The notes below the pieces were generated by a model. The model saw only the letters and a list, made by a program, of their open reading frames with translations, was not told where the DNA came from and searched no databases. From a virus (Duplodnaviria; Caudoviricetes): DNA of 64,000 nt. The position numbers and the translations under genes were made by a program. Position 1 is the stretch's first letter. Each line of letters begins with the position of its first letter. Shown piece after piece: positions 5,082 to 54,598 of the stretch. The DNA is taken from IMG/VR virus record IMGVR_UViG_3300028914_000059, positions 64,001 through 128,000 of that record. One strand, given 5' to 3'.

Positions 5082-6272
5082 GTGAAAGACTCTAAACACA
5101 CAAAAGATTTGATCAAGCGCGCTGCTCTTGATCTGGGAACTAAAACCGGTGGTGTTCCCACCACCTTCAATTTCTCGGTTTTTAAACGTAACATCAGTGA
5201 TGAAGCTGAGCTGGTCAGGAACATAGCTACTGTTATAGAAGCTACTTTCCCAGGCATGGGTAACCCATATCTCTGGGCACCGGCTCAGTATGACGTCGTT
5301 ATTAAGACTCAGGACAAGATGGGTGAATATGATGCCACCCTTTTTACTGAGCAGGCTTTGAACAGGGCTTGTGGTGAACTGGGATTGAAACGACAAGAAA
5401 AGACTCCAGACAGGGATTCTGGGATTCTTGAAATTTTAAACCACTTTAAAACTACCGGTTTTACTAGTGGGAGAATATCTAGAATTAACGGAATCCTACG
5501 TAAAAGTTCGCGCTATATGTTCTGGGATGACAACTGCAGTTGCCAGAGCGTAATAGAAACCATGGTCGAAGCTGGGCTTCTTGGCCTGGACAATAATGAC
5601 TATGGTGCCTCAGAAATTGCATACCTGACTGAATTAGGACGTGAGATCCTTAAGCTCTACGGGGATTCTATGACGGATCTGACTGTTATTACTGACCTCA
5701 TAAAATCAGTAGCCTTCTTTAAGCTGAAAAGATACTGGGCAGAAGCAGTAGCTCATCAGATTATCGAGGACAGCGACGGTCCGTTGCTGTACTCGGTTGA
5801 AAAGCGACTATTGGAACGTAAACCACGTAAAGACAACCTGGCCCCAATGCAGAAGATTGAGACTCCGAAGTATGACTATGTTAAACCTGCTGATAAACCT
5901 AGGGTTAAAGAAATCGAAATCAAACACGATGAGCTTAATCCTCCTAAGCTGGAGCTCAAGCCTAAAACTAGAGCAGCTATGCCAATAAAGATAGAACAGC
6001 CAATGGAAGTCCATAAACCAGCAGCCAAGACTATCGAAGTTGAAGAAGTATTCGTAGCACCCAAACCAACAAAGGAGAATATCGTGGTTAAAAATCCAGA
6101 TCTCGTAGAACAACTAGGAGTAGATACCCAATATCCGTCTATCTTTGAAATGGAAGATATTCAGGATGTTGTTCTCAAGCTGACAATGCTGCAGTTAAAA
6201 TGTGAAAGCAAAGGTCAGCCTGGCAAAGCTGACACAATTTCAAATATGATAAAATTCTTGATGAAAGGGTAA
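5082..6272 (+). CDS. Hypothetical protein, possible winged-helix segment
   Basis: GTG start with AAGGAG SD; EAGLL...YLTELGREIL resembles a wHTH wing; K/P/E-rich linker. Confidence 0.7.
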   Translation: MKDSKHTKDLIKRAALDLGTKTGGVPTTFNFSVFKRNISDEAELVRNIATVIEATFPGMGNPYLWAPAQYDVVIKTQDKMGEYDATLFTEQALNRACGELGLKRQEKTPDRDSGILEILNHFKTTGFTSGRISRINGILRKSSRYMFWDDNCSCQSVIETMVEAGLLGLDNNDYGASEIAYLTELGREILKLYGDSMTDLTVITDLIKSVAFFKLKRYWAEAVAHQIIEDSDGPLLYSVEKRLLERKPRKDNLAPMQKIETPKYDYVKPADKPRVKEIEIKHDELNPPKLELKPKTRAAMPIKIEQPMEVHKPAAKTIEVEEVFVAPKPTKENIVVKNPDLVEQLGVDTQYPSIFEMEDIQDVVLKLTMLQLKCESKGQPGKADTISNMIKFLMKG

Positions 6273-52079: not shown

Positions 52080-52175
52080 GGACGACAGACCGAGTTGGAG
52101 AACGGGGAGGCTATTTAAGCCTCTGCTCATTTGGTAGATGAGCTATAGTGTGGTTCGAATCCACACTGTCGTCCT
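52080..52175 (+). tRNA. Atypical type-II tRNA-like RNA, anticodon undefined
   Basis: GGACGACA/TGTCGTCC; GAGG-CTATTTAAG-CCTC; 8-bp variable arm; 6-bp T stem. Confidence 0.6.
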
Positions 52176-52519: not shown

Positions 52520-52604
52520 GGGGCGGTAGTTGTAATGGTAGAACGTGCAGATAGATAATTCCGCGGTTGTCTGCAAGGTCGTGGTTCGATTCCACGTCGC
52601 CCAT
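52520..52604 (+). ncRNA. tRNA-like RNA with elongated anticodon arm and no 7-nt loop
   Basis: GGGGCGG/TCGCCCC-A; TGCAGATA/TGTCTGCA around 14 nt; CGTGG-TTCGATT-CCACG. Confidence 0.75.
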
Positions 52605-52625
52605 TTTCTGAAAAGGAGAATTACT

Positions 52626-53255
52626 ATGCCTAAACTTTGTGCAAAAATTGGCGGAGAAACATATAAGTTTGGTTTTAACGGGGGGGTACTTCAAGAAAAA
52701 ACTTTAAACCAAACTGTAAATGATGAAGCCACTGCTTACTTTATAGAGGCTTATAAGGTAACTAGTCATAATCCATGGCAAGCCATGAGTTATACTATAG
52801 CAAAAGATTTAAAGTATAATTGTCCTTGTAAATGTTACTTTAATGACTCAATGCTTATATGGACAGCTGGATGGAACAGAGACTTCTTTATTAGTGATAA
52901 AAATGTAAGCAATACGGTGAGCGAATATAGAGTCTATATAAAAATACCGAAGTTTATTGAAAACTGGGGGAGGCCTGATGCTGACACCTCTTTTATGCTT
53001 AGTGAAATATACTCCAGATGTGACAGGAATATAATATGTTCAACAGATGGTGATCCCATGCATGAGTTAGATATAGGTGATGATCATATAGCTAGAAGCT
53101 TACTGACAGACTGGACTAATTATATATTTGATGGTGACAGGGATTATTACATAGCATTTGTGATAGAGTTAGATACTACTCACTCCAACATTCACCTGTT
53201 TGTACCATCTTTTAAAGCGACATTTTACAGATATACAGGAAACTATATAGCATAA
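52626..53255 (+). CDS. Hypothetical protein (tandem duplicate A), possibly fibre-tip-like
   Basis: Start MPKLCAKIGG after AAGGAG; closely similar to 53281. Confidence 0.75.
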   Translation: MPKLCAKIGGETYKFGFNGGVLQEKTLNQTVNDEATAYFIEAYKVTSHNPWQAMSYTIAKDLKYNCPCKCYFNDSMLIWTAGWNRDFFISDKNVSNTVSEYRVYIKIPKFIENWGRPDADTSFMLSEIYSRCDRNIICSTDGDPMHELDIGDDHIARSLLTDWTNYIFDGDRDYYIAFVIELDTTHSNIHLFVPSFKATFYRYTGNYIA

Positions 53256-53280
53256 TCTATATAAAGGTAGGAGAATTACT

Positions 53281-53886
53281 GTGCCTAAACTTTGTGCAAA
53301 AATTGGTGGAGAAACATATAAGCTTGATTTTAACAGTGGGGTACTTCAGGAAAAAACTTTAAACCCAACTGTAAATGATGAAGCCACTGCTTACTTTATA
53401 AGGGCTTGGGGGGCGACTACTGGTCGGACTGTAGCAGAAGATTTAAAGTATAATTGTCCTTGTAAATGTTACTTTAATGACTCAATGCTTATATGGACAG
53501 CTGGATGGAACCAAAACTTCTTTATTAGTAATAAAAAGGTAAGCGATACGGCGCTAAAATATGAAGTTTGGATAAAAATACCTAAGTTTATTGAAAACTG
53601 GGGGAAACCTGATGATAGCACCTCTTTCATGTTTAGTGGAATATATTCCAGATATAATAGGAATATAATATGTTCAACAGATGGTGACCCTTTGCATGAG
53701 CTAGACATGGGTGATGACCATATAGAGAGAAGCTTAATGATAGACTGGACTAATTTTTTTGATGGAGACCATGATTATTACATACTATTCAGAGTAGAGT
53801 TAGATGGCACTCACTCCAACATTTACCTGTTTGTGCCATCTTTTAAAGTGACCTTTTATAGATATACAGGAACCTATCTAGCATAA
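53281..53886 (+). CDS. Hypothetical protein (tandem duplicate B)
   Basis: GTG start; shared GCATAATCTATATAAAGGTAGGAG junction. Confidence 0.75.
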   Translation: MPKLCAKIGGETYKLDFNSGVLQEKTLNPTVNDEATAYFIRAWGATTGRTVAEDLKYNCPCKCYFNDSMLIWTAGWNQNFFISNKKVSDTALKYEVWIKIPKFIENWGKPDDSTSFMFSGIYSRYNRNIICSTDGDPLHELDMGDDHIERSLMIDWTNFFDGDHDYYILFRVELDGTHSNIYLFVPSFKVTFYRYTGTYLA

Positions 53887-53933
53887 TCTATATAAAGGTA
53901 GGAGTTCAGCCTTGGAAATAAAGACTGCCAATC

Positions 53934-53986
53934 AGACCTCCACGCGGGAATCCAGCCTTGGGATCCGTACCATGTGGAGGCCGCTA
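53934..53986 (+). repeat. Structured motif copy 2 (AGCCTTG loop)
   Basis: Same flanks as copy 1; inner stem changed to ATCC/GGAT. Confidence 0.75.
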
Positions 53987-54141
53987 AATTAAAAGTGCCA
54001 AACGGGAAAGGCACTCTAAACATGGACACATCAACCATGGACCCGGTACCGGGTCCCAATGAAGCACCGCCAGAAATGGCTACGGCACTGGTTACAAAGC
54101 CGTAGTACCTGCCTCTCGAGCGCATGAGACAGGAACAAACT

Positions 54142-54292
54142 GAAGTAGAGGTAGGCTGGTAGCCCAGCTGGTTAAGGCACCCGGAGGAAAGTTAGCGGGG
54201 GATTATATTCCGTCACGCATTAGCTTTCTGCAAGGGAGATCAGGGGTTCGAGTCCCTTCCAGGCGACAAGACCGAAAGGTCCCCTCTACTTC
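54142..54292 (+). ncRNA. tRNA elbow embedded in a larger RNA
   Basis: Outer stem GAAGTAGAGG/CCTCTACTTC; D arm GCC-CAGCTGGTTAA-GGC; T arm AGGGG-TTCGAGT-CCCTT; anticodon arm replaced by long stem GGAAAGTTAG/TTAGCTTTCT. Confidence 0.7.
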
Positions 54293-54298
54293 TCTTTA

Positions 54299-54371
54299 GC
54301 CCCAATCGTCTAATATAATAGGATAACCGGCTTCTAGCCGGAGATGCGGTGAGAGTCCGCAAGGGGCGCCA
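54299..54371 (+). tRNA. Degenerate tRNA, anticodon TCT (Arg) on a Glu-like body
   Basis: GCCCC/GGGGC-G-CCA; CCGG-CTTCTAG-CCGG; D loop lacks GG; T loop TGAGAGT. Confidence 0.5.
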
Positions 54372-54372
54372 A

Positions 54373-54466
54373 GACGATTTATCCGAATTGGAAATAGGGG
54401 GAGGCTGTGAGCCTCCGGATATATGTTAATGTATATCCTGTGGTGGTTCGATTCCACCAGTCGTCA
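54373..54466 (+). tRNA. Type-II (long variable arm) tRNA with GTG (His) anticodon and A73
   Basis: GACGATT/AGTCGTC-A; GGAGG-CTGTGAG-CCTCC; variable arm GGATATAT/GTATATCC. Confidence 0.8.
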
Positions 54467-54470
54467 ATCT

Positions 54471-54541
54471 GGGTCGGTAACCAAGCGGTTAGGTGCTGCT
54501 CTGCAAAAGCAGCTAGATCAGTTCGACTCTGATCCGGCCCT
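54471..54541 (+). tRNA. tRNA-Cys(GCA)
   Basis: GGGTCGG/CCGGCCC-T; CTGCT-CTGCAAA-AGCAG; U73. Confidence 0.92.
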
Positions 54542-54598
54542 CTCATTTATTCATGAGATAAAATTTCTTTTCGTTGGCCAGCGCTGGCCAACATTTTT

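Follow-up and report, generated by a model that had tools for sequence, protein, structure and literature searches.

In the tRNA operon of a rumen or bovine-gut phage, one gene combines the anticodon of tRNA-His with the long variable arm of a class II tRNA. This combination raises the question whether the encoded RNA decodes histidine codons, inserts another amino acid at these codons or is not a decoding tRNA at all. The window, which is the whole stretch of 64,000 nucleotides that was analysed, corresponds to bases 64001-128000 of an IMG/VR virus record of 180,070 bp with an estimated completeness of 93%. Bovine, sheep and goat gut metagenome runs hold this stretch, and the size of the phage genome is about 180 kb. 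All coordinates refer to the window unless another contig is named.

The tRNA operon and the structure of the His gene

The gene with the His anticodon (His gene) is part of an operon with the following elements:

51.1-55.0 kb, + strand: tRNA operon with Met, Tyr, Ser, 'Lys', His, Cys and Leu genes (ARAGORN)
about 52081-52175, + strand: paralog of the His gene (sequence comparison), 2.3 kb upstream of it, called as tRNA-Lys(ttt) by ARAGORN
52527-54468, + strand: strain-specific insert of 1.94 kb (BLAST of the operon against the relatives L120 and L129)
54299-54371, + strand: degenerate tRNA-like (Arg-like) gene with the palindromic arm CCGGCU-UCU-AGCCGG (Arg UCU triplet) and an encoded CCA
54373-54466, + strand: His gene, tRNA-His(gtg), class-II-shaped, 94 nt (ARAGORN call; Rfam tRNA model 37.3 bits; fold z = -4.7)
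54471-54541, + strand: canonical tRNA-Cys(GCA), present in all relatives (ARAGORN, Rfam)
54573-54592, + strand: terminator-like hairpin GTTGGCCAGCGCTGGCCAAC with ATTTTTG behind it, 31 nt from the end of tRNA-Cys (consensus match only)

Five of the seven operon tRNAs called by ARAGORN were confirmed by Rfam at default filters, and many tRNA-like pieces between the operon tRNAs are weak matches to the Rfam tRNA model. The default-filter run missed the His gene, which was recovered with relaxed speed filters (37.3 bits at a gathering score of 29). The terminator-like hairpin behind tRNA-Cys may divide the operon. Two ORFs inside the operon (52626-53255 and 53281-53886, both on the + strand) are paralogs with about 84% nucleotide identity. 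Searches for a Pfam or PHROG family were negative for both, and their homologs were found in related phages only, with 70-99% identity. In relatives, positions 53910-54269 are covered by contigs from the RNA libraries of two studies, one a size-fractionated small-RNA library and the other a metatranscriptome; DNA carry-over is possible in these libraries. The covered stretch takes in most of a tRNA-like element at 54142-54292.

A Shine-Dalgarno-like motif precedes 67% of the long ORFs of the phage, compared with a background of 9.5%. This is a hint that the host is probably a bacterium that uses Shine-Dalgarno motifs rather than a member of the Bacteroidota; similarity of the tRNA-Tyr gene gave no signal for the host. 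A search of the phage genome for Thg1, HisRS, a class I synthetase core and a CCA enzyme revealed none of them. An ORF of 390 aa located about 58.8 kb ahead of the window (G000:C1:5183-5773) matches the RNA_ligase family PF09414 with 44 bits, which would fit a phage that copes with tRNA damage.

The His gene itself consists of the following parts:

54382-54398, + strand: D arm with a weak stem and the loop AAUUGGAAA; A14, A15, G18G19 and A20a at canonical, Leu-type positions
54400-54416, + strand: anticodon arm GGAGGCU-GUG-AGCCUCC, a perfect palindrome with two alternative folds
54417-54438, + strand: variable-arm hairpin GGAUAUAU-GUUAAU-GUAUAUCC, 22 nt, 8 pairs including one U.G
54442-54458, + strand: T arm GGUGG-UUCGAUU-CCACC, with U48 just before it at 54441

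The acceptor stem comprises 7 bp from G1-C72 to U7-A66 with one G.U pair, and the 5-bp anticodon stem GGAGG/CCUCC encloses the loop C-U-GUG-A-G. The anticodon GTG is located at 54407-54409, the discriminator A73 at 54466 and the -1 base, an A, at 54372; CCA is not encoded. Thus, the 7-nt loop CT-GTG-AG, the long variable arm, A73 and the A at -1 described in the original prediction could all be read from the sequence, and ARAGORN placed the gene at exactly 54373-54466. The class II (long-armed) shape was borne out as well: in addition to the hairpin with 8 pairs, the variable region amounts to 25 nt, compared with a maximum of 23 nt in 70 sampled class II tRNAs.

Less secure was the description as a clean cloverleaf. 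The minimum free energy of -39.1 kcal/mol (z = -4.7) was not reached by any of 200 shuffled sequences, and the other helices are intact, but the D stem is weak: ARAGORN shows one Watson-Crick pair, two G.U pairs and one mismatch, and Rfam two non-standard pairs. The tRNA core is retained with U8, A14, G18G19, the UUCGA T loop and the 7/5 arrangement of acceptor and T stems. The gene starts 1 nt past the encoded CCA of the Arg-like gene and ends 4 nt before tRNA-Cys, and such tight spacing is typical of co-processed phage tRNA clusters.

Two ideas about the variable arm were rejected. The hairpin occurs only once in the genome and is not a repeated mobile element. The resemblance of variable-arm loops to anticodon loops (UGUUAA to an Asn loop, UGGUAG to a Thr loop) would suggest spare anticodon loops, but 15 of 68 normal class II tRNAs and 29% of random 25-mers contain a 6-mer match of this kind.

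Palindromic anticodon arm, paralog and strain variation

The palindromic anticodon arm can be drawn with a 5-bp stem and the 7-nt loop CUGUGAG, or with a 7-bp stem and a GUG triloop, in which C32:G38 and U33:A37 are paired. Folding of the isolated arm predicted the 7-bp form (-10.7 kcal/mol, 79% of the ensemble), and the minimum free energy structure of the whole gene agrees. The combinations U32:A38 and U33:A37 are common among working tRNAs, and the open state of such loops can be kept by modifications. C32 together with G38 was present in 2 of 177 distinct tRNAs from bacterial genomes; though rare, it is found in apparently normal tRNAs. A class I tRNA-Trp(CCA) on two JGI metagenome contigs (L148 and L174) shows this palindromic design too, GGAGGCU-CCA-AGCCUC, with C32 and G38.

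All three irregular genes of the operon share the design GGCU-NNN-AGCC with C32:G38, whereas G38 is present in none of the five canonical tRNAs. The corresponding arm of the Lys-like paralog is GGAGGCU-AUUUA-AGCCUCU, and that of the unrelated Arg-like neighbor is given above. Since the His and Lys-like genes are paralogs, the shared design represents two independent occurrences and not three. This pattern is the main reason why we lean to a non-decoding role. On the other hand, the His gene in its own register has a textbook spacing that is compatible with decoding (N26, a 5-bp stem, a 7-nt loop, U33 and A37).

In the paralog and the His gene the acceptor begins with the same GACGA, and the two genes agree in the D loop (CCGARUUGGARA), in the GGAGGCU/AGCCUC helix and in the T arm. 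The variable hairpin of the paralog (7 bp, GCUCAUU/GAUGAGC) is also paired, but its sequence is unrelated to that of the His gene. Comparison of the two genes revealed compensatory changes at the pairs 7-66 (U-A to A-U) and 49-65 (G-C to U-A). Both paralogs have therefore been kept as cloverleaves, as also the pairing of both hairpins indicates. Between the shared CU...AG flanks the paralog contains AUUUA and the His gene GUG. In its own register the loop of the paralog reads UAUUUAA with A33 and can be drawn with N26 and a 5-bp stem; by homology of the helices, this leaves either the His gene or the paralog with a loop of 5 nt or 9 nt. A15 and A20a are missing in the paralog. Its discriminator is C in the window and A in the L120-type relatives, and because of this A73 we rejected its G-1:C73 as a sign of His ancestry. 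The paralog is 98% conserved in L120-L126 and is also present in L153. As judged by these comparisons, the His and Lys-like genes form a phage-specific paralogous pair in which both variable hairpins are oversized.

The Arg-like neighbor has a 5-bp acceptor stem, a D loop without GG and the T loop UGAGAGU, and neither ARAGORN nor Rfam called it. It accompanies the His gene in a second haplotype. This haplotype, contig X3 from an independent DNA run of another study, spans 54137-54494, and its sole listed change in the His gene is C54416T, which converts the first anticodon-stem pair from G-C to G.U; 3 of the 17 differences in this interval are not displayed, and identity of the anticodon to the window cannot be stated. 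Contig X4 from a third study contains the His gene from 54379 on, behind a different upstream sequence (...CTCTACTTCTCT). In its 5' acceptor strand GACGAT is replaced by GACGGC, and with an unchanged 3' strand A5-U would become G.U and U6.G would become C-G. All 8 differences of X4 within 54379-54529 are not displayed, and the same restriction applies to its anticodon. The -1 base in X4 is T, so G-1 is again missing. The His gene of an additional contig, L175, is identical, but this contig matches the window at 99.99% over 8.6 kb and was therefore not counted as independent. The number of genomic contexts of the His gene is two to at least three.

A sequencing error, which the original prediction had named as a possible objection, is contradicted: the gene is found in X3 and X4 and the visible changes preserve pairing, with the limit given above for the letters of the anticodon. 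The presence in two independent metagenomes and the retained pairing indicate that the gene is no sequencing slip.

Relatives of the operon were reached via a 92-aa ORF just 3' of it and via an ORF inside it. The closest ones, L120-L126 (flanks 92-97% identical), have kept the Met, Tyr, Ser, 'Lys', Cys and Leu genes, but positions 52527-54468 are missing and with them the His gene. The missing insert comprises a tRNA-like RNA, the two paralogous ORFs, the tRNA-like element, the Arg-like gene and the His gene. In L129 the place ahead of tRNA-Cys is occupied by another filling of repeat units. No further copies turned up in pattern scans of IMG/VR and of the JGI metagenomes or in a BLAST search of GenBank phages, and these phages have no tRNA similar to the His gene; the JGI scan recovered only the Lys-like paralog, once (L153). 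Searches of IMG/VR with the proteins of the in-operon ORF and of an upstream 323-aa ORF gave no relatives, and the tRNA operon was absent near the kinase-like gene in L117 and L119 (48% identity to this gene). The absence from close relatives and from the scans points to an accessory, swappable cassette that is rare.

Further observations concern the exchange of cassettes in this region. The motif CTCTACTTCT(C/T)T occurs directly 5' of tRNA cassettes in the window (54284-54295), in L129 (about 5336-5348) and in X4 contigs, and may be a cassette-swapping junction or a processing signal. In L129 (4483-4566), and also in L176, L177 and L179, the slot after tRNA-Ser is occupied by a Leu-derived class II tRNA-like gene whose loop of 6 or 8 nt is closed by C...G (ARAGORN 'caga') and U73 in place of A73. 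In a more distant relative an IS605 OrfB/TnpB-like gene (Cas12f1-like_TNB; L176:5959-7227, - strand) adjoins the tRNA cluster.

Isotype identity and possible functions of the RNA

To compare the His gene with class II tRNAs we used covariance models for Leu (R1, n=10), Tyr (R2, n=22) and Ser (R3, n=21), which were run on the operon:

Leu model R1: His gene 39.7 bits, phage tRNA-Leu 83.6 bits
Tyr model R2: His gene 42.9 bits, phage tRNA-Tyr 90.4 bits
Ser model R3: His gene 35.6 bits, phage tRNA-Ser 71.8 bits

Non-cognate canonical tRNAs reached 26-63 bits with these models. Anticodon-masked profile HMMs for Leu, Tyr and Ser gave 6.0, 8.1 and 7.7 bits for the His gene, compared with 47.8, 66.4 and 40.0 bits for the cognates, and a His HMM gave 1.5 bits. 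Because the training sets were small, the models are rough stand-ins for the isotype models of tRNAscan-SE. The body had been called Leu/Tyr-like; this holds for its shape and for the LeuRS determinants described below, but not for its sequence (36-43 bits against 72-90 bits for the phage cognates). As to a conflict between isotype and anticodon, which the original prediction had proposed as a check, the His score is very low, and the models matched no isotype. Bacterial Ser identity depends on G73, acceptor pairs, C11-G24 and a large variable region (PMC9976931); the His gene has A73 instead of G73, and its score with the Ser model is low. Taken together, its predicted body shows a class II shape, an orphan sequence and a Leu-type core.

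With neither G-1 nor C73, no match to an isotype and a closable arm shared with irregular genes, a tRNA mimic or stand-in, and not a routine decoder of CAY codons, is the most likely explanation, and we favor it tentatively. The closable palindromic arm, the paralog and the tRNA-like neighbors shift the odds in this direction. The RNA would be released in the same way as its neighbors, by RNase P, 3' trimming and the CCA-adding enzyme of the host, and charging by HisRS would be inefficient. With the 7-bp palindromic arm closed around GUG, the RNA could act as a decoy or as a nuclease-resistant stand-in toward host enzymes that act on tRNAs, such as anticodon-arm nucleases, modification enzymes and synthetases. 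Phage tRNAs have been described as counter-measures to tRNA-cleaving defences (PMC10264068, PMC12409363, PMC13056530), and the strain-variable nature of the cassette would fit a counter-defence gene. In irregular tRNA polycistrons, some members are charged and have no use in translation (PMC5389517).

An alternative that we consider unlikely is a missense tRNA charged with leucine by a host LeuRS, which ignores the anticodon and the variable arm, so that leucine would be inserted at CAC and CAU. In E. coli, Leu identity depends on A73, A15:U48, G18G19, A20a and D/T tertiary contacts, and the anticodon arm and the variable arm are dispensable (PMC9976931). By inspection, A73, A15:U48, G18G19 and A20a, i.e. 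the full set of LeuRS determinants listed there, are present in the His gene. A15, U48 and A73 occur in all 12 sampled tRNA-Leu genes, whereas the 14 listed tRNA-Tyr genes have mostly C48 and in no case U48, and position 73 of the listed tRNA-Ser genes is G or, in two cases, U. The likeness to bacterial tRNA-Leu also includes the class II shape and the AAUUGG context of G18G19. The loop can be drawn with 7 nt, including U33 and A37, the acceptor and T stems are arranged 7/5, and natural tRNAs with mismatched anticodons are known (PMC5389517, PMC10404621, PMC11415595). Such a tRNA could serve deliberate mistranslation or could keep ribosomes moving when tRNA-His is depleted. Against this reading stand the low Leu scores of both model types, the GUG anticodon, the weak D stem, the ability of C32:G38 to close the loop and a variable region of 25 nt instead of 12-17 nt in tRNA-Leu. 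The nearest relatives lack the gene, the paralog lacks A15 and A20a, and the 773 His codons in the long ORFs of the phage itself would suffer from the exchange. That the phage deliberately makes a Leu- (or Tyr-) accepting class II tRNA for His codons as a swappable cassette is conceivable, if hardly probable. The effect would be recoding of CAY codons at a low level, or rescue of stalled ribosomes when a defence destroys tRNA-His.

Quite unlikely in our view is an unorthodox but real tRNA-His, charged weakly via GUG or by a host HisRS with no requirement for G-1, which would serve as a spare unrecognised by the tRNA-cutting defences of the host. Bacterial His identity consists of G-1, C73 and the anticodon (PMC9976931), and GUG is itself a HisRS determinant. 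With canonical bacterial tRNA-His the gene shares GUG, U33 and A37, but it is long-armed, whereas the canonical variable loop has 4-5 nt, and it lacks G-1 and C73. The six control tRNA-His genes (from Blautia, a Ruminococcus flavefaciens MAG, a rumen Lachnospiraceae MAG, a Bacteroidales MAG, Streptococcus and one metagenome contig; 75-78 nt) all possess G-1 and C73. With A or T at -1, A73 and the long arm, the gene clearly deviates from a canonical bacterial tRNA-His, as had been predicted. Some alpha-proteobacteria and their phages have a tRNA-His with A73 and without G-1 (PMC5389517), and altered anticodon loops of phage tRNAs were proposed as an escape from nucleases (PMC10264068). The G-1-less system relies on A73, U72 and the anticodon (PMC9976931) and its tRNAs have a short variable loop and a 7/5 or 8/4 arrangement, whereas the His gene has G1-C72 and an 8-bp arm. 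Moreover, the frequent Shine-Dalgarno motifs suggest an ordinary gut host that uses them, the phage encodes neither Thg1 nor HisRS, and a long variable arm was found in no known tRNA-His in a full-text literature search.

Improbable is also a decaying duplicate, i.e. a functionless tRNA pseudogene that rides in a recombination-prone operon. The absence from the closest relatives, the weak D stem and the lack of a matching isotype would agree with decay, and expression could not be shown, as the RNA runs X12 and X20 reach from 53910 to 54269 only, derive from relatives and leave the His gene outside. In contrast, all helices except the D stem are intact with a fold z of -4.7, compensatory changes distinguish the gene from its paralog, two independent haplotypes in two genomic contexts show changes that preserve pairing, and the gaps of 1 nt and 4 nt to the neighbors are exact. 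These data argue for a genuine phage gene for a tRNA-shaped RNA, which is selectively maintained yet dispensable.

Charging with tyrosine, and thus Tyr at His codons, is highly improbable: the bacterial Tyr set of A73, G34 and U35 (PMC9976931) and the long arm are present and the Tyr model gave the highest of the three isotype scores, but this score is equal to those of the non-cognate tRNA-Cys and tRNA-Ser and far below that of the phage tRNA-Tyr, A15:U48 is of the Leu type in place of the G15 and C48 of most listed tRNA-Tyr genes, and with 8 bp the arm has about double the length that is usual for Tyr.

Relation to known systems

The His gene was also compared with three groups of unusual tRNAs. 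Allo-tRNAs share with it the long variable arm and a misfit anticodon; like the irregular polycistrons they come from metagenomes and from tRNA clusters of phages, and their role has been proposed to be regulatory or non-coding (PMC5389517). They differ by an 8/4 or 9/3 arrangement of acceptor and T stems and by G73 or U73 (serine identity), whereas the His gene has 7/5 and A73, and no sequence relationship to allo-tRNAs was detected. Phage tRNAs that evade nucleases, e.g. the T5 tRNA-Lys in the case of PARIS AriB, likewise have unusual anticodon-arm sequences in phage clusters and belong to the accessory, strain-variable gene content; a function against tRNA-cleaving defences has been proposed or shown for them (PMC10264068, PMC12409363). 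Otherwise these tRNAs are canonical and correctly charged, whereas the His gene lacks isotype identity marks and contains an additional long hairpin. The mistranslating tRNAs of the tRNAProX type from Streptomyces (PMC10404621) show a similar conflict between anticodon and identity elements, but their body is that of a class I tRNA-Pro and they work with a dedicated synthetase, whereas no synthetase partner is encoded by the phage. Full-text literature searches revealed no class II tRNA with a His anticodon, and the combination of a 7/5 class II shape, a His anticodon, a complete Leu core and a closable arm was not found in the literature and libraries searched.

Natural tRNAs in which anticodon and identity disagree are rare and bear on how the genetic code is kept or bent, and phage tRNA clusters are now viewed as weapons against tRNA-cutting defences. 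The His gene sits among other tRNA look-alikes in an operon that swaps cassettes. Should it decode, it would be a viral missense tRNA; otherwise it would extend, as a compact member, a set of phage tRNA mimics that is apparently undescribed.
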